Shown here: positions 1 through 63,512 of the stretch, in pieces
How the letters are laid out: every line of letters begins with the position of its first letter
How positions within the stretch are numbered: position 1 is the stretch's first letter
Assembly (NCBI GenBank): GCA_937879955.1
Contig: CALFMK010000001.1
Location: 5,461-69,460, forward strand
Source: an uncultured bacterium
Lineage (GTDB): Bacteria; Patescibacteriota; Minisyncoccia; Phycocordibacterales; Phycocordibacteraceae
Direction: 5' to 3'
DNA length: 64,000 bases
Position numbers and translations under genes: made by a program
Notes under the pieces: generated by a model
What the model saw: only the letters and a program-made list of their open reading frames with translations
What the model was told of the DNA's origin: nothing
The model's database searches: none

Positions 1-377
1 TTCTTCTGGAACTGCAGGCTGTTGCGGGCCGGCCACAGCGCGAAGCGGGCGATGAGGAAGCCGAAGAGGACGTTGAGGAGCACGAGGCCGAGGAACGAGT
101 ACAGGTACGCCTCGTCCTTCACGGCGTCGATGGTGTCCGGCAGGCTGCTCGTGGTGGTCGCGTTCTCTGCGAGCGCCTGGGCTATCTGCGTCGTGATGGT
201 CTCCACGGTGCGCTCCTGGGCGTAGTGCACGCCCCACACGAACACCACGATCGAGATCAGGGCGAGCACGATCTGCAGCCCGACGACATGGATCGCCGTC
301 TTCACGAACAGGTTGTACCGGTACTTATCGATTAAGTCGGTAACCCACGCCGCGGACGGTTTCGAAGAGAGGGGCAT
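1..377 (-). CDS. sensor histidine kinase, N-terminal fragment (continues beyond window start)
   Basis: Minus-strand frame is open from the ATG at 377-375 to position 1. It is absent from the ORF track because no stop lies in the window. Translation MPLSSKPSAAWVTDLIDKYRYNLFVKTAIHVVGLQIVLALISIVVFVWG...LYSFLGLVLLNVLFGFLIARFALWPARNSL shows two hydrophobic helices flanking a short loop, as in OmpR-partner kinases. It lies directly downstream of the response regulator and overlaps its 3' end. Start codon uncertain. Confidence 0.5.
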   Translation of the reverse strand, partial: MPLSSKPSAAWVTDLIDKYRYNLFVKTAIHVVGLQIVLALISIVVFVWGVHYAQERTVETITTQIAQALAENATTTSSLPDTIDAVKDEAYLYSFLGLVLLNVLFGFLIARFALWPARNSLQFQK

Positions 378-999
378 CTGCATAGGTATCGAGCTTCTTG
401 CGAAGATTCTTCATGTGTACATCAAGCACGTTCGAGAAGCCAGGGAAGTCGAAGCTCCAGACATGGTCGAGGATGCTCTCGCGCGTGAGGGCCTCGTCCG
501 GGTGGCGCATGAAGTACTCGAGGAGCGAGTACTCCTTGAGCGTGAGGGAGAGCGGCTTGCCGCCCTTGGTCACGGTCCGCGCCCCGGAGTCGAGCTCGAT
601 GTCGCGGACGGAGAGCTTCGACGGGAGGCTCTGCTCAGGACGGCGGAGCACCGCGTTGATGCGGGCCACGAGCTCCTCGAACGAGAACGGCTTCGCGAGG
701 TAGTCGTCGGCGCCGGTGTTGAGGAGCTCCACCTTGTACTCGGTCTCGTCGCGGGCCGTGAGGATGATGATCGGGGTCTTCACGCCCTCCTTCCGAGCCT
801 CGCGCGTGATGGTGGCGCCGTCGACGCCCGGGAGCATGAGGTCGAGCAGGATGAGGTCGTACTCGTCCCGGTAGAGGAGGATGCGGGTCTTCGCCTTCTC
901 GCTCTCCGCGATCCAGTCCACGGCGAAGCCCTTCGACTCGAGGCCGCGCTTCAGGCCCTCGGCGAGCTTCGCTTCGTCTTCAACGATGAGTATGCGCAT
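325..999 (-). CDS. OmpR/PhoB-family response regulator
   Basis: Receiver motifs MRILIVEDE, LILLDLMLPGVDG, ILTARD and AKPF, followed by a winged-helix output domain (LTLKEYSLLEYFMRHPDEALTRESILDHVW...VDVHMKNLRKKL...TVRGVGYRL). Confidence 0.92.
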   Translation of the reverse strand: MRILIVEDEAKLAEGLKRGLESKGFAVDWIAESEKAKTRILLYRDEYDLILLDLMLPGVDGATITREARKEGVKTPIIILTARDETEYKVELLNTGADDYLAKPFSFEELVARINAVLRRPEQSLPSKLSVRDIELDSGARTVTKGGKPLSLTLKEYSLLEYFMRHPDEALTRESILDHVWSFDFPGFSNVLDVHMKNLRKKLDTYADAPLFETVRGVGYRLNR

Positions 1000-1050
1000 G
1001 GGTAGAGGATTTATGGCTAATCGCGTATGGGAAGACTCTATCTATTAGAG

Positions 1051-1070
1051 CATGAAGCCTTCATGAAGGA
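1051..1070. promoter_or_regulatory. direct-repeat box CATGAAGCCTTCATGAAGGA (two CATGAAG half-sites 11 bp apart) upstream of the response-regulator gene
   Basis: Lies 52-71 nt upstream of the RR start codon. A 17/20 match in the same orientation occurs at 14977-14996 at the 5' end of the hybrid kinase gene. An 11-bp repeat phase is typical of OmpR-family sites. Confidence 0.4.
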
Positions 1071-1080
1071 TGGTTCAGAA

Positions 1081-1108
1081 AGGAAAAAGACCCGCAGGAG
1101 CGCGGGTC
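1081..1108 (-). terminator. intrinsic terminator (minus strand)
   Basis: Minus strand reads GACCCGCG-CUCCU-GCGGGUC followed by UUUUUCCU. It ends a minus-strand transcript coming from the ORF-free region at 1.1-1.6 kb. Confidence 0.6.
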
Positions 1109-1599
1109 CTCTGAAGGATCAGGAGACGCAGGACGGGATCGCTGGGCGCGACCCCGTCCTGCCGATATTCCTGCGCGGAACGATGCGCACAGGAATCTAT
1201 CGAGGGTGCGAGCCACCTGCCAGAGGCAGACAGCGGTGCCGCTTCCGCTCGGGTGAGGGCACCATACCACATAAAGAAATCCGCCTCACTGATGAGGCGG
1301 ACTGGACAAGGAAAGAGCGGGGAAGCCGGGCGCAGAACGGAAGCTGCTCGCTAGAGGGAGGAACGAGCTTTCTCCATTCTGCGCCGGGCCCGCGCTTGTC
1401 GTCGCTGGCGGGGCTCATTTCGCCGGCGACTGGCGCGTCGTGCCGGAAGATACGAGGGGTACTCCCGGCACGTGCATCCTCCCATAGGCAGGGCGAGCGT
1501 CAAGCGATGCGGGAAGTCGTATCCATTCGCGCACCGCACCACGATTCCCGGGTCCGTCTATGGGTCAAAAAACGGCCTCACGAAAGGCTTTTTCGAAGT

Positions 1600-1780
1600 T
1601 GTGTCTTGCCTCTGTCCGGGAACGTTTCGTGCTGGTTTATGCACAAGGAAGATTGGGTGAAGAGCCCGTATCATACGTAGGTCAACGCAGCCGAATGCAG
1701 TCGGAAGGATGCGGCGGGACGCGCTACGGCGCCCCCGAACGCGGTCCGAAGTGGAGCGAAAACCCTGCCAGCGTCCGAAG
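1600..1780 (+). promoter_or_regulatory. candidate cobalamin (B12) riboswitch in the nrdA leader
   Basis: AAGGAAGAUUGGGUGAAGAGCCCG (1645-) resembles the conserved GGGAAnnnGGUGnnAAnCCnG core. CAGUCGGAAGG resembles the GGGAAGG element. AGCGAAAACCCUGCC (1755-1769) resembles the B12 box AGCCnGGAGACCUGCC. It sits directly upstream of nrdA. Matching was done by eye against the remembered consensus only. Confidence 0.45.
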
Positions 1781-1830
1781 CCAAGGCTGACTTATAAATG
1801 TGCCGTGTAACCTACGGGATTACCTACCAT

Positions 1831-4719
1831 ATGAAGCAGGTCAAGAAGCGGAACGGGAGCATCGTCGACTTCGAGGCGACGAAGATTACTGACGCATTGC
1901 GAAAATCCTTCGCGTATTGCGAGGTCGCGATAGACGAGGCGGGGCTCGAGACGCTCACCAAGGGCGTCCTTGAGGACCTCTCGGCGAAGTTCGGCGACGA
2001 GGCGACTCCCTCCGTGGAGCATGTACAGGACCTGGTAGAGCTCGCGCTCATGGAGGCGGGCTACCTCACCGTGGCGAAGCACTACATCGTGTACCGCTAC
2101 GAGCATGCGAAGGTCCGCGAGGAGAAGAAGCAGGAGACCCTCGAGAAGATCGAGGAGGAGGGTCTCCTCATCACCACCGCGTCCGGGAAGCAGGAGCGCT
2201 TCAACGAGACCAAGCTCCGCCAGACCCTCGAGCATCTCGCGAAGGAGGACCAGATGGCGGGCATCGACATCGACCACATCCTCTCCCAGCTCAAGTACGA
2301 GCTCTATGAGGGTATGACCACGGCCGAGGTGGGGAAGGCGCTCATCATGGTGGTCCGCTCGATGATCGAGCGCGACCCGGCGTACTCGCGCCTGGCCGCC
2401 CGTCTCCTCCTGAACCGTCTCTACGCCGAGGTCTTCGGCACGGAGTTCGACAGCAAGAACCCGTACGATTCCGTCGAGCGCGTGTTCGAGGCGAACATGA
2501 AGCGGCTTGTGGCGAACGGCGACCTCGACGAGCGCATGGCCGAGTTCGACCTGAAGAAGCTCGCGCGCGCGATGAAGCTCGAGAACGACCAGCTCTTCGA
2601 GTACATGGGCCTCGAGATCATGATCAGCCGCTACTGCATGGAGGACCCGAAGGCCAAGCGCACCCTCGAGATCCCGCAGATGCTCTGGATGCGCGTGGCC
2701 ATGGGCCTCGCCATCGCCGAGAAGCCGGAGGACCGCGAGCGCGTGGCGCTCGAGTTCTACGACGCGCTCTCGAACTTCTACTACACCCCGGGCGGCCGCA
2801 CCCTCTTCCAGGCAGGCGCGAAGAAGGCGCAGCTTTCCAACTGCTTCCTCAACACCGTGCCTGATTCCCTCGAGGGCATCTTCAAGTCCATCTCGGACAA
2901 CGCCCAGTACCTGAAGTGGTCGGGAGGCACCGGCACCGACTGGACCCCGGTCCGCGCGACGGGTTCCTTCATCAAGGGTACCGGCGTGCCTTCCCAGGGC
3001 ATCGTGCCGTTCCTCAAGATCGCGAACGACGTGAACCTCGCCATCAACCGCTCCGGCAAGCGCCGCGGCGCCGGCTGCGTGTACCTCGAGACCTGGCACC
3101 ACGACATCGAGGACTTCCTCGAGCTCCGCAAGAACACCGGAGACGAGCGCCGCCGCACGCACGACATCAACACCGCGAACTGGATCCCGGACCTGTTCAT
3201 GAAGCGGGTGCGCGACAACGGCATGTGGACCCTCTTCAGCCCGAGCGAGGTGCCTGACCTCCACGACCTCTACGGCGCAGCCTTCGAGAAGCGCTACATG
3301 GAGTACGAGGCTATGGCGGACGCGGGCGGCATGGAGCTCTGGAAGCGCATCCCGGCGACCGACCTCTGGAAGAAGATGATCGGCATGCTCTTCGAGACGG
3401 GTCATCCATGGATCACCTGGAAGGACCCGATCAACGTCCGCTCCCCGCAGGATCACGCGGGCGTCGTGCACAACTCGAACCTCTGCACCGAGATCACCCT
3501 CAATACGAACGAGGACGAGACCGCCGTCTGTACGATCGGCTCCCTCAACTTCGCGAAGTTCGTCGTTACCGGCGAGGACGGCGTGGCTCGCTTCGACCAC
3601 GAGCTCGTGGCGCGCTACACGCGCATCGCGATCCGCATGCTCGACAACGTCATCGACCTCAACTTCTATCCGACGGAGGACGCACGTCGCGGCAACACCC
3701 GCCACCGTCCGGTGGGCCTCGGCGTCCGCGGCTACCATGACGCGCTCTACGGCCTGAACATCCAGTTCGACTCGCCTGAGGCGCTCAACTTCGCCGACGA
3801 GAGCATGGAGGTCGTCGCGTACTACGCGATCCTCGGCTCGTCCGAGCTCGCGAAGGAGCGCGGCACCTACTCGACCTACAAGGGATCGAAGTGGGACCGG
3901 GACATCTTCCCGCAGGACACCCTCGACCTCCTCGAGAAGGAGCGCGGCGAGTCCGTGAAGCTGAAGCGCGGCGGCAAGCTCGACTGGACCCCGGTCCGCG
4001 AGCACGTGAAGAAGTACGGCATGCGCAACAGCAACACCATGGCGATCGCGCCGACCGCGTCGACCGCGAACCTCGTCGGCTGCATCCCGTGCGTCGAGCC
4101 GATCTACAAGAACATCTACGTGAAGTCGAACAAGGAAGGGGAGTTCGTCGTCGTGAACAAGTACCTCGTCGAGGACCTCAAGAAGGCGAACCTCTGGAGC
4201 GCCGGCATGCTCAACCGCATCAAGTACGCGGACGGCAGCATCCAGGGCATCATCGAGATTCCGCGCGCGCTCCGCGAGAAGTACAAGGAGGTCTTCGAGA
4301 TCGACGGCAAGTGGCTCGTCGAGGCGGCGGCTCGTCGCGGCAAGTGGATCGACCAGTCCCAATCCCTGAACATCTTCTATAACGGAACCTCCGGAAAGGA
4401 CCTCTCCGACATCTACTTCCTCGCGTGGGAGATGGGCCTCAAGACGACCTATTACCTCCGCACCCTCGGCGCGTCCCAGGTTGAGAAGGCGACCGTCTCG
4501 ACCGTTGAGTACGGCTCGACCCACATCCGCGGAGGATCGACCCTCGCTGAGGTCGCTGCTGCGACCGTCGTAGAGGAGGTGGCCGTCGCGGCCCCGGTTA
4601 TCGAGGAGGTGCCCGCGCTCAGCGTCCCGAGCGGATTCTCGGCTGCGGAATGGCAGGCCAAGATGGCTCGCGTCGCCGCAGGCGAGGAGGCGGGCGTGTG
4701 CGAATCGTGCGAAAGCTAA
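1831..4719 (+). CDS. nrdA: ribonucleotide-diphosphate reductase large subunit, class Ia
   Basis: N-terminal ATP-cone (KRNGSIVDFEATKITDAL), a class I catalytic core (NLCTEI region) and a C-terminal Cys pair (CESCES). Followed by nrdB. Start moved from track position 1798 to the ATG at 1831, where the ATP-cone begins. Confidence 0.93.
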   Translation: MKQVKKRNGSIVDFEATKITDALRKSFAYCEVAIDEAGLETLTKGVLEDLSAKFGDEATPSVEHVQDLVELALMEAGYLTVAKHYIVYRYEHAKVREEKKQETLEKIEEEGLLITTASGKQERFNETKLRQTLEHLAKEDQMAGIDIDHILSQLKYELYEGMTTAEVGKALIMVVRSMIERDPAYSRLAARLLLNRLYAEVFGTEFDSKNPYDSVERVFEANMKRLVANGDLDERMAEFDLKKLARAMKLENDQLFEYMGLEIMISRYCMEDPKAKRTLEIPQMLWMRVAMGLAIAEKPEDRERVALEFYDALSNFYYTPGGRTLFQAGAKKAQLSNCFLNTVPDSLEGIFKSISDNAQYLKWSGGTGTDWTPVRATGSFIKGTGVPSQGIVPFLKIANDVNLAINRSGKRRGAGCVYLETWHHDIEDFLELRKNTGDERRRTHDINTANWIPDLFMKRVRDNGMWTLFSPSEVPDLHDLYGAAFEKRYMEYEAMADAGGMELWKRIPATDLWKKMIGMLFETGHPWITWKDPINVRSPQDHAGVVHNSNLCTEITLNTNEDETAVCTIGSLNFAKFVVTGEDGVARFDHELVARYTRIAIRMLDNVIDLNFYPTEDARRGNTRHRPVGLGVRGYHDALYGLNIQFDSPEALNFADESMEVVAYYAILGSSELAKERGTYSTYKGSKWDRDIFPQDTLDLLEKERGESVKLKRGGKLDWTPVREHVKKYGMRNSNTMAIAPTASTANLVGCIPCVEPIYKNIYVKSNKEGEFVVVNKYLVEDLKKANLWSAGMLNRIKYADGSIQGIIEIPRALREKYKEVFEIDGKWLVEAAARRGKWIDQSQSLNIFYNGTSGKDLSDIYFLAWEMGLKTTYYLRTLGASQVEKATVSTVEYGSTHIRGGSTLAEVAAATVVEEVAVAAPVIEEVPALSVPSGFSAAEWQAKMARVAAGEEAGVCESCES

Positions 4720-17564: not shown

Positions 17565-18164
17565 CTAGAGGGATGGCGGCACGAAGCATCGGCGGCAGCG
17601 CGGCTCGTACTTGTCCGCGTCGCCGATGACGACCGTCGACGTGTCCTTGCTTAGTCGTTGCGAGAACTGTGCTTCGTCACCGCATTCGCAGATAGCCGTG
17701 ACCTTCAGTATGCGGTCCGCGATGGCGCAGAGCCCGGGCATGCCGTTGAACGGCTTCCCGTCCCAGGTCATGTCGAGGCCGGCGATGTAGGCATGCAGGT
17801 CGTCATTCCGTCGTAGGTAGAGGAGCGTTTCGATAGCGCGCCCGAACCAGCCGAGCTGGTCCCCGTCGAGCGGGAAGAACTGGGCTTCGTCGACGATGAG
17901 GACGTCGAAGTCCTCATTGGCGAAGAGCGCGAGAAGTTCTCGCTCGGTCCTGATCTCGTGCGCCGGGAGGAGTCCCGTGCGCGCGGTGGTGCCGTTCTCC
18001 TGGAGCCTTCGCGGCGCGATGCCGTTAGCGATGCGCGTGTCGGTGACCGGCTTCACGGCGAGCACCCTCTTCTTCGCGATGCGCGCGCGTTCCGCCCGCA
18101 GGAGCAGTACCCCGGACTTCCCGGAGAACATGGGCCCCACGATAACCTCGAGCGTTGCTGGCAT
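17565..18164 (-). CDS. tdk: thymidine kinase
   Basis: P-loop GPMFSGKS, DEAQFF and a C-terminal zinc ribbon CECG...CRRC. SD AAGGAGGG upstream. Confidence 0.9.
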   Translation of the reverse strand: MPATLEVIVGPMFSGKSGVLLLRAERARIAKKRVLAVKPVTDTRIANGIAPRRLQENGTTARTGLLPAHEIRTERELLALFANEDFDVLIVDEAQFFPLDGDQLGWFGRAIETLLYLRRNDDLHAYIAGLDMTWDGKPFNGMPGLCAIADRILKVTAICECGDEAQFSQRLSKDTSTVVIGDADKYEPRCRRCFVPPSL

Positions 18165-18227
18165 GGAGCCCTCCTTGTTGATGAACGTCTGGAGGCAATG
18201 ATACAGCTCGCGCCTGACAAAGGAAAA

Positions 18228-18248
18228 GACAGGCCGCGAGGGCCTGTC
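18228..18248 (-). terminator. intrinsic terminator (minus strand) after the VOC-family gene
   Basis: GACAGGCC-CTCGC-GGCCTGTC followed by TTTTCCTTT on the minus strand. Confidence 0.6.
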
Positions 18249-18269
18249 TTTCCGTGTGTGGTCGGGTTG

Positions 18270-18695
18270 CTAGGCAGCCGGTGCCTCTACCATCCACTCG
18301 ATGCCGTACTTGTCGCGGAACATGCCGAAATGCGTGCCCCACGGGCTCTCGCTCATCGGCGCCTCTACCCGTCCTCCTTGCGAGAGGCCGGAGAATATCC
18401 TATCCGCCTCCTCCTTGCTCTCCGCGCTCACCGCTATCTTGCTGCGGTTCTCGCTCTCGCTCACGGTGCCCATGAACGAGGGAACGTCATTCCCCATGAG
18501 CACGTTCCCTGGGCCGATAGGGAGGGCGATGAGGATGATCTTGTCCGCGTCCGCCTCCGATACCGGGAACTCCGGACTCACGAGCTCCTTGAGGCGGAGC
18601 TTCTTGGTGAACTCGCCGCCGAACACCGACTTATAGAACGTGAACGCTTCTTCGGCGTTGCCGTTGAAGTTTATCCAAGGGTTTATGGTTGCCAT
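18270..18695 (-). CDS. VOC/PhnB-like (glyoxalase-fold) protein
   Basis: MATINPWINFNGNAEEAFTFYKSVFGGEF...WGTHFGMFRDKYGIEWMV is the PhnB/3-demethylubiquinone-methyltransferase-like pattern. Start trimmed to the ATG at 18695, 6 nt after TATACT. Confidence 0.8.
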   Translation of the reverse strand: MATINPWINFNGNAEEAFTFYKSVFGGEFTKKLRLKELVSPEFPVSEADADKIILIALPIGPGNVLMGNDVPSFMGTVSESENRSKIAVSAESKEEADRIFSGLSQGGRVEAPMSESPWGTHFGMFRDKYGIEWMVEAPAA

Positions 18696-18769
18696 GCGAG
18701 GAGTATAGCAGGGAGGATTTCGCTCCTGCATGAAGGAAAAAGGACCCTCATGGATCCTTGCGTCCTATC

Positions 18770-18844
18770 TGGCTCCGCGGGCAGGATTCGAACCTGCGAC
18801 CAATCGATTAACAGTCGACCGCTCTACCACTGAGCTACCGCGGA
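18770..18844 (-). tRNA. tRNA-Asn (anticodon GTT), CCA encoded
   Basis: Cloverleaf folded by hand. Acceptor TCCGCGG/CCGCGGA, D-stem GCTC/GAGC, anticodon loop CTGTTAA, T-arm GCAGG-TTCGAAT-CCTGC, discriminator G plus CCA. Confidence 0.95.
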
Positions 18845-18954
18845 ATGCTATGAAGCCCTCCTGGGAGGGCTTTTTCCATACTAGCCGAATTCTCGGATTC
18901 GGCAACGGGTAGGGCCTGGTATGCTTGGTATATATCCCGCTAACCCCATACGCC

Positions 18955-19197
18955 ATGCCTATCCTCTACATACGCCTCGGCTGCCACTACTCCGAGAAGG
19001 TGCTCCATGCGGCAGCCGAGCTCGGCGTGGCCTTCGACCTGAAGACCATCGACAATCCGGAGAGCCTCGCCGAGCTCGTGGCTCGAGGCGGGAAGCAGCA
19101 GGTCCCGTACCTCGTGGACGCCGAGCACGGCGTCGAGATGTACGAGTCCGAGGATATCATCGCCCATCTTCACGCTACCTTTACGTCGGCAGCGTAG
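18955..19197 (+). CDS. glutaredoxin-like thioredoxin-fold protein (monothiol CHYS site)
   Basis: MPILYIRLGCHYSEKV...KQQVPYLVD...MYESEDII follows the Grx/GST-N pattern. Only one Cys at the active-site position. Start trimmed to the ATG at 18955. Confidence 0.65.
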   Translation: MPILYIRLGCHYSEKVLHAAAELGVAFDLKTIDNPESLAELVARGGKQQVPYLVDAEHGVEMYESEDIIAHLHATFTSAA

Positions 19198-19247
19198 GAT
19201 AGGGCGAGGTGCGCCGTCTTATGAGATTCCGTTAAGTACCAGACTCC

Positions 19248-19616
19248 ATGCAGATCCATTTCAAGGGCACGAATTATGAGCTTCCGGCGAACGTAAGCGC
19301 GCTCGCCAAGCGCAAGGTGGACGGCCTCGCGAAGTATCTCGGGAAGGGGAAGGAGAACGCGCGCGCGTACGTCGACCTCGGGAAGGAGACCGAGGCGCAT
19401 CAGAACGGCGCTATCTGGCGCGCGGACATCAACTTCGACATCGATGGCAGCCGCTTCTACGCGAAGGCCGTGGAGGACAGCATCGAGAAGGCCATAGACC
19501 GGTCCGTGAGCGAGCTCGCGAAGGAGCTGCAGACAGCAAGGAAGCGCGAGCAGAGCCTCGCGCGCAAGGGAGGCAGCCTCATCAAGTCACTGATGCGCCG
19601 CGGGCTCACGTCCTAG
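19248..19616 (+). CDS. hpf: ribosome hibernation promoting factor (short HPF/RaiA)
   Basis: MQIHFKGTNYELPANVSALAKRKVDGLAKY...AYVDLGKE...FYAKAVEDSIEKAID is the typical S30AE/HPF fold sequence. Confidence 0.85.
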   Translation: MQIHFKGTNYELPANVSALAKRKVDGLAKYLGKGKENARAYVDLGKETEAHQNGAIWRADINFDIDGSRFYAKAVEDSIEKAIDRSVSELAKELQTARKREQSLARKGGSLIKSLMRRGLTS

Positions 19617-20470
19617 AGCGCATTCCAGCCGGAGGATACGAGACCGCGGTATGCGGTCTCGCTCTTTCCTTCGGGCACCACGAGCTCGGGCGCGAAGACG
19701 CCGTCCTCGAATCGCGCGGTCCTTATCTTCACGCGCAGGCGCTTCCCGTCCTTCTCCATGAAGAAGTACGTGCCCGGGGACTCCGCGTACGCGCGGTATC
19801 GGTTCCAGTTCTCCGTAGCGTCACCCCTGAGCGAGAGCTCGCCCATCTCCTTCCGGATCTTCTTCGTGACGGTGGCCTTGGAATCGTCCTGCGGTACGGG
19901 CACCAGCGTACCCTCCTCGAAGGCTGGGAGGATGTCGGCGAGGAGCGCGGCGCCGATCTGCACGAGGCGCGGACGGAGCTCGCGCGTGGTCTCGTCGGAT
20001 TCTATGGCTACGGTCTTCGACGCGAGCACGTCGCCTGCGTCGAGCGCGTAGACCATCCGCTGAATGGCGACGCCGGTCTCGGTCTCGCCCGCGAGGAGCG
20101 CGCCCTCGACAGGAGAGGCGCCGCGGTACTTCGGGAGGAGGGAATAATGGATATTGAGGATGCCGAGCGGGAACGAGTCGATGAGCGCCTGCGGCAGGAT
20201 CTTGCCGTACGCGACCACGATCGCGTACTCGCAACCGTATCCCTTGAGCTCTTCGATGAGCGCATCGTCCGCCTTCTCGGGCGTGAGGACGGGAAGGTCG
20301 TGCTCGAGCGCCCAGGCCTTGGTCTCGCAGGGCGTGAGCGTCATGCCGCGCCCTCTCGGCGCGTCAGGCGAGGTGACCACGACCGCGGGCACGTAGCCCC
20401 GCTCGACGAGGATCGCGAGGGTATCGCGCGCGACGTAGGGAGTGCCGAAGAAGGCGAAGGGCTTAGGCAT
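19613..20470 (-). CDS. fmt: methionyl-tRNA formyltransferase
   Basis: FFGTPYVARDTLAILVERG..., ILNIHYSLLPKYRGASP, and a C-terminal beta-barrel domain. Overlaps def by 8 nt. Confidence 0.9.
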   Translation of the reverse strand: MPKPFAFFGTPYVARDTLAILVERGYVPAVVVTSPDAPRGRGMTLTPCETKAWALEHDLPVLTPEKADDALIEELKGYGCEYAIVVAYGKILPQALIDSFPLGILNIHYSLLPKYRGASPVEGALLAGETETGVAIQRMVYALDAGDVLASKTVAIESDETTRELRPRLVQIGAALLADILPAFEEGTLVPVPQDDSKATVTKKIRKEMGELSLRGDATENWNRYRAYAESPGTYFFMEKDGKRLRVKIRTARFEDGVFAPELVVPEGKSETAYRGLVSSGWNAL

Positions 20471-20984
20471 GGCGCGCAGGGTCGGTCTCTACTTTATCAG
20501 TGGCATGGTCGATGAAGAGGATGCCGTTCAGGTGGTCGGTCTCGTGCTGGAAGATCTGCGCGAGTAAGCCGCCGCCGCCGCGCTCGAAGGCCGCGCCCTG
20601 CTCGTCGCGGGCTCGTACCGTGGCGCGATTGTGGCGCATGGTCTTGCCGTAGATGCCGCGTACGGAGAGGCAGCCCTCGTCCATCTCGACCCTGCGCTTC
20701 GAGCTCTTCACGAAGACGGGGTTTATGTAGACGCCCACTTCCACCGGATGGTCCGGGTGCCCGTCAGGCGGGGGAGGCACGGTGCGGTCGTAACGCACGA
20801 TGAAGATGCGCAGGCTGATGCCGATCTGAGGCGCCGCGAGCGCGACGCCGTCCTTCTGAGCGTCGAGGGCCTCGGCCATGTCGGCGAGTATGCGGGCGAG
20901 CTCGGGCGTCCCGAAGAGCTCTTCGGGTACGGGTTCGGCTATCTTTCTGAGGACGGGCGCGCCGTCCTGGACGATCTCGGACAT
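20463..20984 (-). CDS. def: peptide deformylase
   Basis: Motifs GVALAAPQIG, EGCLSV and HETDHLNG. TATAGT lies 6 nt upstream of the ATG. Confidence 0.92.
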   Translation of the reverse strand: MSEIVQDGAPVLRKIAEPVPEELFGTPELARILADMAEALDAQKDGVALAAPQIGISLRIFIVRYDRTVPPPPDGHPDHPVEVGVYINPVFVKSSKRRVEMDEGCLSVRGIYGKTMRHNRATVRARDEQGAAFERGGGGLLAQIFQHETDHLNGILFIDHATDKVETDPARHA

Positions 20985-20997
20985 ACGGGGACTATAG

Positions 20998-21235
20998 CAA
21001 AAAAGAAAGCACCGGCCACGAGGGTCGGTGCGGGAAGGTGCGAAAGGGCAAGGGTGCGTCGTCGGAGGACGGTGCCAGGGTTGGTGCGCCAGGCGGGGAA
21101 GGCGTGCGAATCGTTCCCCAACGGTACGTAGCCTCTTCTGTGCGAGTCGCTACTCTCTGACGGTCGACTCCGACGACGCGATGATAGCCTCACATGAGAG
21201 GCGAGGTCCTTGGCAGGGATTATGTACCAACGACC
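20998..21235 (-). ncRNA. candidate structured small RNA or attenuating leader between the 21272-21568 gene and def
   Basis: TTGACT-N16-TATAGT promoter (plus coordinates 21241-21268) right after the upstream stop codon. A 9-bp GC hairpin plus TTTCTTTTTT terminator lies at 20998-21031. No plausible ORF. A perfect 12-bp long-range complement (21056-21067 with 21168-21179) crosses a second helix (21111-21127 with 21224-21233). Confidence 0.35.
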
Positions 21236-21271
21236 TTCTGACTATAGCACTAATATGAATCGAGTCAATGG

Positions 21272-21568
21272 CTAGAACGGCTTGTCCAGCGTCTTGTGCT
21301 TCTCCGGGTCTATCTCCCACCAGAACTTCTTGCTGAAGTTCTTCGCTCTCGAACAGACCGTCTTCAGGTAGTAGAGGTCGTCGGTCGGGATGCCTTCGAG
21401 GATCTTTCCCATGCGGCTCATGGTGAGCTTCGGGAGGCCGTCATGCGCGCGGCTGTGGTTCAGGTGCCGGACGAAGAAGCGCATGAGCTCGCCGCGCTCG
21501 GTCTTGGTGCTCGGCTTCTTGCCGTCCTTGCCGAAGTCCTTCGGGAGGAGGTCCGCGATGCTCTTCAT
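21272..21568 (-). CDS. conserved hypothetical small protein
   Basis: 98 aa, basic, ...DDLYYLKTVCSRAKNFSKKFWWEI. TACAAT lies 6 nt upstream of the ATG. Confidence 0.65.
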   Translation of the reverse strand: MKSIADLLPKDFGKDGKKPSTKTERGELMRFFVRHLNHSRAHDGLPKLTMSRMGKILEGIPTDDLYYLKTVCSRAKNFSKKFWWEIDPEKHKTLDKPF

Positions 21569-22986: not shown

Positions 22987-23997
22987 ATGTCCCTCTTCTC
23001 ACCGCGCATCGGCATCGACCTCGGCACTACCAATGTCCTCGTGTTCGTGCCTGGGAAGGGCGTGGTCCTGAACGAGCCGTCGGTCGTGGCGGTCTCCACC
23101 GAGACGAACAAGGTGGTCGCCATCGGGGTGGAGGCCAAGGCGATGGTAGGCCGCACCCCGGACTCCATCCAGGCGTACCGCCCGATGAAGGATGGCGTCA
23201 TCGCGGACTATCGCGTGACCGAGGCGATGCTCCGCTATTTCATAAAGAAGGCACTCGGCCGGAACCTCTTCAAGCCCACCGTCCTCATCTCCGTGCCTGC
23301 GGGCGTTTCCTCCACCGAGAAGCGCGCCGTGATCGAGGCTGCCGTGAAGGCGGGCGCGGCAGACGCGTACGTCGTGAAGGAGCCGATCCTCGCCGCGATC
23401 GGTGCCGGAATCCCGATCCAGGAACCGATGGGGCGCATGGTGGCTGACATCGGCGGCGGCACCATCGACGTGGCCGTGATCTCGCTCGGCGGCATCGTGG
23501 CGTCCACCTCCGTGAAGGTGGCAGGGAACAAGCTCGACCGCGCGATCATCGACCATGTGAAGAAGCAGTACAACCTCTCCATCGGCGACAAGTCGGCCGA
23601 GGACATCAAGATCCAGATCGGCTCGGCCGTCCCGGTCACCGAGGAGCTCACGATGTCGGTGAAGGGACGCGACCTCCTCTCGGGCCTCCCGCGCACCATC
23701 GAGCTCAAGACCAACGAGGTGGTGCAGGCACTGAACCGCGAGCTGCGCGACATGATGAACGCGGTGCGCAAGGTGCTGCAGGACACGCCGCCTGAGCTCG
23801 CAAGCGACATCATCGACAACGGCATCATCCTTACGGGCGGCACGAGCCAGCTCCGCCATCTCCCCGAGCTCGTGTATAGGCGCACCGGCGTGCAGGCGAA
23901 GCTCGCCGACGACGCCTACTACTGCGTCGTGCGCGGCACGGGCATCGCGCTCAAGCATCTCGATACCTATAAGAAGAGCATCATCTCGAAGCGGTAA
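22987..23997 (+). CDS. mreB: rod-shape-determining protein MreB (copy 1)
   Basis: IGIDLGTTNVLV, actin-fold phosphate and adenosine motifs (DIGGGTIDVAV, ILTGGTSQL). Start set to the ATG at 22987, 7 nt after TATGAT. In-frame ATGs also lie at 22975 and 22978. Confidence 0.9.
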   Translation: MSLFSPRIGIDLGTTNVLVFVPGKGVVLNEPSVVAVSTETNKVVAIGVEAKAMVGRTPDSIQAYRPMKDGVIADYRVTEAMLRYFIKKALGRNLFKPTVLISVPAGVSSTEKRAVIEAAVKAGAADAYVVKEPILAAIGAGIPIQEPMGRMVADIGGGTIDVAVISLGGIVASTSVKVAGNKLDRAIIDHVKKQYNLSIGDKSAEDIKIQIGSAVPVTEELTMSVKGRDLLSGLPRTIELKTNEVVQALNRELRDMMNAVRKVLQDTPPELASDIIDNGIILTGGTSQLRHLPELVYRRTGVQAKLADDAYYCVVRGTGIALKHLDTYKKSIISKR

Positions 23998-24007
23998 CAG
24001 GGAAGAG

Positions 24008-24036
24008 CAAAAGGCCCCGCGCATGCGCGGGGCCTT
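24008..24036. repeat. 29-nt palindromic hairpin element, copy 1 (CAAAAGGCCCCGCGCATGCGCGGGGCCTT)
   Basis: Identical 29-mer recurs at 24403-24431. The core is a perfect 22-nt palindrome. Plausibly also a bidirectional terminator after mreB. Confidence 0.8.
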
Positions 24037-63294: not shown

Positions 63295-63512
63295 TGGAGC
63301 ACATCACACTTCAAGAGTATGAAGATACTGATGGAACGAGGATGGAGCTCGGTATCCAGTATGACGAAGCTACCTACCAGTTCATCGTTTCCGGAACGCC
63401 AATTAATGGCAATGGGGCGTATGAGGCAGGGAAGACGCCCATTTTCGCATCCTTCCCGACCCTCGAAGAAGCAAGGATGTTCGTAGAAAAGAGTTTCACT
63501 AAGATCTCCTAG
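63294..63512 (+). CDS. hypothetical protein (low-GC island)
   Basis: TAATG stop/start overlap with the previous gene. MEHITLQEYEDTDG... (72 aa). The track start at 63270 is in the same frame. Confidence 0.45.
   Translation: MEHITLQEYEDTDGTRMELGIQYDEATYQFIVSGTPINGNGAYEAGKTPIFASFPTLEEARMFVEKSFTKIS

Follow-up and report, generated by a model that had tools for sequence, protein, structure and literature searches.

The window (the whole 64-kb stretch of DNA analysed here) carries def (20463-20984) and fmt (19613-20470), both on the minus strand and both confirmed by Pfam, and directly upstream of def, on the same strand, lies a unit that runs from a promoter of its own to an intrinsic terminator (Table 1). 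The promoter, TTGACT-N16-TATAGT at 21268-21241 (-), matches the consensus at 10 of 12 positions and has a TG before its -10. Its TTGACT begins 3 nt past the stop codon of a 98-aa ORF (21272-21568), as an earlier note on this DNA had reported, and the promoter is recovered on the minus strand by our scan. From the usual spacing of 6-8 nt, transcription is predicted to start at about 21234-21236. The same note had described a 9-bp GC hairpin with a tail at the far end: hairpin and U-tract are indeed present, but the stem (GCACCGACC-CUCGU-GGCCGGUGC, 21031-21009 (-)) consists of 8 pairs and one A.C mismatch, and because of this mismatch it is missed by a strict terminator scan.

The roughly 225-235 nt between promoter and terminator are noncoding. 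The two overlapping ORFs in the unit, of 84 and 76 aa, have no Pfam match, and the homologous spacers of relatives vary in length from 138 to 360 nt, which agrees with the previous statement that the segment holds no plausible ORF. Folded as RNA, the whole unit reaches a minimum free energy (MFE) of -91.2 kcal/mol (z = -3.6), and none of 200 dinucleotide shuffles is as stable.

Table 1. Features of the RNA unit, of the adjoining def promoter and of the probable second copy in the window.
Feature	Positions	Strand	Basis or remark
-35 hexamer TTGACT of the RNA promoter	21263..21268	-	Promoter scan
Extended -10 TGCTATAGT of the RNA promoter	21241..21249	-	Promoter scan
H1, 5' hairpin	21204..21236	-	MFE fold and RNAalifold consensus
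H2, small GC hairpin GCCUC-UCAUGU-GAGGC	21187..21202	-	Folds; optional in the family
P3, long helix, 5' arm GCGUCGUCGGAG	21168..21179	-	Pair probability 1.00
P3 interior, branched and variable	21068..21167	-	100 nt here; 22-100 nt in relatives
P3, long helix, 3' arm CUCCGACGACGC	21056..21067	-	Pair probability 1.00
Single-stranded C/U-rich tail	21032..21055	-	Unpaired in MFE folds
Intrinsic terminator	20999..21031	-	Hairpin 21031-21009 and U-tract UUUCUUUUUU 21008-20999
def promoter and start	20982..20999	-	TG 20999-20998, TATAGT 20996-20991, ATG 20984-20982
Probable second family copy	1270..1478	-	R2 match 1270-1385, E 5.7e-5; fold z = -7.9; terminator found

The central element of the fold is P3, i.e. 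the perfect 12-bp pairing that had been pointed out between 21056-21067 and 21168-21179, which is contained in the MFE fold with a pair probability of 1.00. A consensus fold of five full-length relatives (RNAalifold) independently returns H1, P3 and the terminator. The loop of H1 reads CAUAAUCCC in the window and often GGUGUAAUGAAC or AUAAUC in relatives, and its pairing is kept between the window and the closest relative (locus L161) by four double changes (UUGG/CCAA to CAGG/CCUG, and GGUC/GACC to UCUC/GAGA). The stems of H2 differ among relatives (GCCUC/GAGGC, CGUCUC/GGGACG, GGCCC/GGGCC, and GCCU/AGGC), and H2 is missing in L165. The least conserved part is the interior of P3, where a GAGCGAC-like motif is common to one subgroup; L003 and L166 have no more than a plain hairpin there.

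Other elements of the structure first proposed for the segment hold less well. A helix between 21111-21127 and 21224-21233 was thought to cross P3, as in alternative structures or a pseudoknot; this pairing consists of two 5-bp blocks with a 7-nt bulge between them, both blocks are broken in L161, and the 5' partner instead forms H1 and is kept there by compensatory changes. A 6-bp local hairpin (21144-21149 with 21165-21170) that would overlap P3 is possible, with 5 of its 6 pairs kept in L161, but it appears in neither the MFE fold nor the consensus fold. Partition-function folds of 26 members give P3 a probability of at least 0.97 wherever the routine picked it, and the terminator one of 0.64-1.00, the low values being those of bulged stems, which are crudely scored. 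Since both are highly probable, nothing competes with the terminator, and neither the mutually exclusive structures nor the pseudoknot that had been suggested find support in our analysis.

By its Def protein, the window belongs to a high-GC lineage of Patescibacteria/Paceibacterota. We collected 174 def-region loci by means of Def (80 from genomes, 80 from metagenomes, and 14 through exact-protein look-ups), of which about 26 distinct ones, all in Paceibacteria and with Def identities of 62-88%, have a homologous unit in front of def. These share a layout of promoter, H1, H2 (sometimes absent), P3, a single-stranded pyrimidine-rich stretch, and terminator. A regular expression detects a near-consensus -35/-10 pair in the corresponding position at 15 or more of the 26 loci, visual inspection shows one at most of the rest, and every member closes with a GC hairpin and a U-run that abut the -10 of def. 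Neither blastn nor nhmmer finds any similarity between the window RNA and 80 related loci; it took synteny, layout, and a covariance model to reveal the homology of the family.

The orthologous spacers covary in P3. Among 14 homologues, 93% of the cells in the two arms are paired and 9 of 13 pairs have changed on both sides, figures for related sequences whose arms were anchored by hand on the conserved GUGCCG/CGGCAC-like base, which favours paired columns. Hand anchoring was used because plain MAFFT misaligned the 5' arm. None of 500 shuffles reaches the observed covariation score, and when the partner arm is slid by 1-3 columns, the share of paired cells falls to 33-50%. The alignment also holds 10 G.U or U.G cells, each of which would be an A.C mismatch if read on the other strand, and the constraint therefore acts on the minus-strand RNA and not on the DNA.

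A covariance model (hereafter R2) was built from 18 members, with the window and L161 left out. In the constructs used for modeling, the P3 interior was replaced by GAAA, and the models therefore align P3 only where the interior is short. Searched against the whole 64-kb window, R2 has its best match at 20998-21071 (-), with an E-value of 6.8e-6, and it also recovers L161, L093, and L170, all three left out of the model, upstream of def. Weak matches extend to ordinary terminators, for example at L009 and at 23967-24034 of the window; we rejected the L009 match as a family member, as it is an ordinary mreB terminator. Overall, we consider it quite probable that the segment belongs to a real family of structured RNAs under selection.

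The second-best match of R2 in the window (1270-1385, also on the minus strand) includes a 13-bp helix, CCCCGCUCUUUCC, and a terminator. The surrounding segment folds into two hairpins (the first with the stem GUGCCGG...CCGGCAC), a long helix of 14 bp, a tail with CCCCGCUCUUUCC, and the terminator. It occupies part of an 800-nt spacer that is flanked by the genes for a response regulator (325-999, -) and a ribonucleotide reductase (1798-4719, +), 20 kb away from the def-linked RNA and upstream of a different leaderless gene. Rfam has no match at this locus. On the strength of one R2 match and of the layout, we regard it as a probable second copy, and given its position away from def, the family is probably multicopy and not tied to def. 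The same spacer contains a further structured and terminated unit at 1076-1262 (z = -6.0).

The unit and the def promoter meet at a single nucleotide, i.e. the final U of the terminator tract is the T of TG-C-TATAGT (20999-20991), and in every family member the 3' arm of the terminator and the U-tract extend over that part of the def promoter which comprises its -35 and spacer. As had been noted, a TATAGT stands 6 nt before the def ATG (20996-20991), which is the geometry of a leaderless mRNA. An extended -10 at 6-8 nt before the def ATG recurs in almost every one of about 170 related loci, low-GC Paceibacteria among them. It is also kept in relatives that have no RNA at this position, namely L167 and L168 (80% Def identity), L007 and L087, L016 and L092, L009, L089, and L090. 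Judged from this conserved leaderless promoter, the RNA is predicted to be dispensable for the expression of def.

The gene upstream of the RNA changes from locus to locus, being either the 98-aa ORF, as in the subgroup of the window, or an ORF of about 600 aa, which we take to be PriA from the known gene order priA-def-fmt, while RNA and def stay adjacent. This linkage may reflect the overlap between terminator and def promoter. All confirmed homologues outside the window adjoin def, which may reflect the collection of the loci by means of Def, but a role in cis would predict the same arrangement. With a promoter and a terminator of its own, a separate def promoter, loss of the RNA in close relatives, and a probable paralogue, the reading of the segment as an independent small RNA, which the earlier note had offered as one of its options, gains support, and we consider it likely that the RNA functions independently of def-fmt.

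Sequence conservation within the family is concentrated in the base of P3 and in the 3' tail. The tail carries the motif G[CUA][CU]C[CUA]UU, with GCCCUUU at 21049-21043 in the window and GCUCUUUC as the commonest form; it mostly lies 2-6 nt past P3 and is aligned by the leave-out model R2. Within 30 nt after P3, the motif is present in 19 of 22 members, compared with 3.5% of 33-nt windows drawn at random from these loci, an enrichment whose P-value is optimistic and only indicative because the motif was defined post hoc and the sequences are related. Pairing of the H1 loop with the tail into a pseudoknot is possible with 5 bp in L163 alone and is not conserved.

The genome uses both canonical AAGGAGG Shine-Dalgarno sites and leaderless starts, and the GCUCUUU form of the motif can pair with AAGGAGC with one wobble. 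Complements of the tail within the 64-kb window do not rise above the background level. The fmt start region was considered as a cis-encoded target and rejected, its complementarity having a z of about 0. The best non-self complement lies at 63436-63485, where there is no credible gene start. That the RNA works by base-pairing through its C/U motif is a possibility to which we give about one chance in three.

Our leading interpretation, held tentatively and at a little under even odds, is that the segment is the gene for a stable, highly structured, trans-acting small RNA of about 225-235 nt that belongs to an uncatalogued family of high-GC Paceibacteria. Transcription would proceed from its own sigma-70-type promoter, supplemented by read-through from the 98-aa gene, and would end at the intrinsic terminator that physically overlaps the leaderless def-fmt promoter. 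The RNA would then act in trans as other small RNAs with C/U-rich motifs do, the exposed pyrimidine motif pairing with purine-rich, Shine-Dalgarno-like sites in mRNAs (as in cuckoo/CcsR, LhrC, RsaE/RoxS, and the csRNAs). The rigid helices would serve as a stabilizing scaffold or as a site for protein binding.

In its organization, the closest analogue is the ccaF1-CcsR locus, a likeness in possible working and not in membership. The cuckoo/CcsR small RNAs consist of two to four adjacent hairpins with CCUCCUCCC in each loop (PMC4615179), and CcaF1 is a small protein encoded upstream of them that binds them and aids their maturation (PMC8034643). CcsR1-4 (cuckoo, alpha-r14) of Alphaproteobacteria resemble the RNA described here in having several hairpins, stems that vary freely, and a conserved, short, pyrimidine-rich motif of anti-Shine-Dalgarno type (PMC4615179). 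They also occur in several genomic copies, often in tandem, immediately behind a gene for a small conserved protein, the transcript of which enters them (PMC4615179, PMC8034643). By contrast, the cuckoo motif CCUCCUCCC sits in hairpin loops and is absent from our RNA, in which the motif is GCUCUUUC-like and occupies the single-stranded linker between P3 and the terminator. Moreover, the CcsR RNAs arise by processing of a 3' UTR whereas this RNA has its own promoter, the phylum is different, the protein encoded next to this RNA is not a DUF1127 protein, and the RNA has no Rfam match.

A second comparison is with small RNAs of Gram-positive bacteria. LhrC1-5, RsaE/RoxS, and the streptococcal csRNAs are 90-150 nt long and made of simple hairpins, with the motifs UCCC, CCCC, and CCUCC. 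They are genes that run from promoter to terminator and have siblings, as the RNA studied here probably does; they also expose C/U motifs that pair with Shine-Dalgarno regions and act without Hfq, in which this RNA would resemble them. The RNA of the window and its homologues differ from them in length (140-360 nt), in the long covarying helix, in the branched interior, and in the motif itself.

The alternative that survives best, though we judge it unlikely, is that the RNA binds a protein and does not pair with mRNAs, the base of P3 and the adjacent GCUCUUUC motif forming the site of an RNA-binding protein for titration (a sponge), delivery, or maturation. The pattern of conservation is typical of such a site, as it is concentrated in the base of a helix and in the flanking single strand, at a fixed spacing of 2-6 nt. 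One candidate binder is the small, basic 98-aa protein, which is encoded directly upstream in many loci. There is no terminator between its ORF and the RNA, and its mRNA must therefore run through the RNA. The protein belongs to a family of 333 homologues restricted to Patescibacteria, basic and helical, with invariant R, K, and W positions, and is modeled as a four-helix bundle (pLDDT 77.5); CcaF1, which binds the CcsR RNAs encoded downstream of it and helps to mature them, provides a precedent (PMC8034643). However, the 98-aa gene persists without the RNA in L167, L087, L007, L089, L090, and L092, the RNA stands behind the ORF of about 600 aa instead in L005, L006, L083, L088, L012, and L013, and adjacency is the sole link between the two. 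As gene and RNA do not strictly co-occur, the partnership is only a lead.

It is also possible, and in our view quite unlikely, that the segment has no role in trans and is a structured 3' UTR or terminator-insulator, which would end upstream transcription and its own before the def promoter and thereby protect or tune that promoter. Occlusion or interference at the def promoter would then be the point of control, and the helices would have been selected for RNA stability or for efficient termination. The overlap of the terminator 3' arm and U-tract with the -35 and spacer region of def in every member fits this explanation, as does the absence of any terminator after the upstream ORF and before the RNA, and the linkage of RNA and def survives a change of the upstream gene. 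A terminator alone would suffice for such a task, however, leaving 200-360 nt of covarying structure, a conserved motif, and a strong promoter unexplained; in addition, close relatives manage without the module, and a probable copy stands at an unrelated locus.

The earlier note had also raised the idea of a riboswitch or attenuator leader of def-fmt, and a cis-regulatory leader of this kind, in which a metabolite, a tRNA, or a protein would switch transcription between termination at 21009-21031 and read-through, now appears improbable. In its favor, the RNA is co-oriented with def and lies directly upstream of it in all loci collected, an intrinsic terminator comes after the structured RNA, and in read-through transcripts the def AUG would be preceded by U-rich sequence without structure. 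Riboswitch and T-box leaders are likewise structured RNAs of about 200 nt with a terminator, co-oriented with and directly upstream of an operon for metabolism or translation. Such leaders have a conserved junction core and alternate between terminator and antiterminator, and neither is seen in this RNA, in which no pairing rivals the terminator, nor is there conservation of the crossing helix that had been proposed. The conserved nucleotides sit in the P3 base and in the 3' tail and not in the junctions or loops of a sensor; the region that should hold a ligand pocket, i.e. the P3 interior, varies more than any other part, and two members have only a plain hairpin there. Unlike in these leaders, the spacing between P3 and the terminator also varies, from 17 to about 60 nt, with an extra hairpin in L015 and L104. 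Finally, a separate leaderless promoter precedes def, mRNAs made by read-through would be devoid of a Shine-Dalgarno site, close relatives do without the RNA, its probable copy is upstream of an unrelated gene, and even at E-values up to 10 Rfam returns no riboswitch, T-box, or leader.

At gathering thresholds, Rfam 15 finds two tRNAs only in the whole window. At E-values up to 10, the region 20900-21350 has chance matches only (DnaX, 15.9 bits vs 35), and at E-values up to 5 nothing is found in the spacers of 13 homologous loci. The spacer thus matches no family at either gathering or permissive thresholds.

It is extremely improbable that the segment is a very divergent housekeeping RNA (6S, SRP, RNase P, or tmRNA) that the Rfam models missed, since neither the window nor the 13 homologues match at permissive thresholds, the 5' and 3' ends are unpaired and a central bubble is absent, L003 and L166 have a plain 20-bp hairpin that is not 6S-like, the SRP helix-8 motif and the conserved regions of RNase P are absent on reading of the sequences, and the RNA is missing at this locus in close relatives and probably present in two copies here. 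What the segment shares with 6S RNA (ssrS) is a structured RNA of about 200 nt that evolves fast while its synteny is kept, and a predicted strong promoter where 6S is strongly expressed; in E. coli, 6S RNA is linked to the one-carbon/folate gene ygfA. Unlike in 6S, however, its 5' and 3' ends form no closing stem, and it has no central bubble and no Rfam match. The H1 loop UGUAAU resembles UGUNR, the motif of the SRP Alu domain, but this reading was rejected in view of the lack of an S domain and of a model match; in SRP RNA, helix 8, with a GNAR tetraloop and conserved symmetric and asymmetric loops, is the Ffh-binding site.

Several further candidates were examined and set aside. By layout or for lack of partner genes, 6S, RNase P, tmRNA, retron RNA, omega-RNA, C/D-box RNA, and a K-turn were rejected. 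Mimicry of the acceptor stem of tRNA-fMet, suggested by a C x A mismatch at the P3 base, was dropped as well, this position being G-C in 6 of 14 members. Mimicry of 16S helix 45 plus the anti-Shine-Dalgarno sequence by the P3 3' arm and the tail is unsupported in local alignments against shuffles (mean z 0.19, with only 2 of 22 members at P < 0.05), for which the 16S query was a generic 3' end.

Known regulators are very few in Patescibacteria (CPR), whose genomes measure about 0.6 Mb, and in the literature searched no lineage-specific regulatory RNA is described for them. A covarying RNA family with its own promoter, and probably with more than one copy per genome, would offer a concrete entry into RNA-based regulation in these uncultivated bacteria and is a candidate for a new Rfam family. 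The analysis also corrects the idea of a riboswitch for the formyl-methionine pathway, which is attractive and unsupported, and documents that, throughout the group, def is leaderless and preceded by an extended -10 promoter. As a long shot, we consider a CPR-specific set of sibling small RNAs, each with an anti-Shine-Dalgarno-like motif beside a rigid helix and perhaps working with the 98-aa protein, that would shift translation between Shine-Dalgarno-led and leaderless mRNAs. If true, this would be a first post-transcriptional regulatory system described for Patescibacteria.

Across close relatives, the gene order around the structured small RNA is kept: a gene of the MurA/AroA family (EPSP-synthase-like), a 98-aa ORF, the RNA, def and fmt, followed beyond fmt by convergent S30AE and glutaredoxin genes. 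In nearly every Paceibacteria locus analysed, whether of high or low GC, the def ATG stands 6–8 nt 3' of the end of an extended -10 (TGnTAnnnT), and by its sequence def is arranged as a leaderless gene. A leaderless-type arrangement is also seen at many first genes of the window—e.g. the 98-aa ORF, whose ATG is preceded by TGGTACAAT and then 6 nt—and strong AAGGAGG sites are present at other window genes.

Coordinates of the features discussed (window positions unless a homologous def locus, L, is named)
Feature	Position	Strand	Remarks
Conserved gene order	17565-21568; L161, L164-L166, L169-L173		
def, extended -10 to ATG	20982-20999	-	about 2985-3003 in most of ~170 related loci
Terminator after S30AE (hibernation factor) gene	19639-19671	+	perfect 10-bp stem, then CUCUUUCCUU
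tRNA, anticodon GUU	18773-18844		just beyond S30AE/glutaredoxin genes in the listed order
OmpR-type response regulator gene	325-999	-	divergent; borders spacer
Non-coding spacer	1000-1797		800 nt
Ribonucleotide reductase gene	1798-4719	+	borders spacer
Longer RNA versions	L081:480-839; L085:2696-2987; L093:2697-2967; L010:2688-2981; L169:1253-1487		235-360 nt

The spacer between the response regulator and ribonucleotide reductase genes carries, on its minus strand, two or three tandem terminated units that are strongly structured (z -7.9 and -6.0 for fold stability against shuffles) and have no match in Rfam. Directly 3' of the first unit's terminator lies TGTGGTATGGT, which reads as the extended -10 of the next unit.

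C-interrupted U-tracts seem to be usual in this genome. These tracts are similar to the tail motif of the RNA family, and are a possible source of false matches to its covariance model.

In some relatives the RNA is longer and has the appearance of two modules, one after the other. The first comprises a long helix and then a CUUU-type motif, and is followed by a hairpin resembling H1 (a hairpin of the RNA), then by another long helix and, last, by the terminator. This two-module appearance suggests that the longer versions arose by internal duplication.
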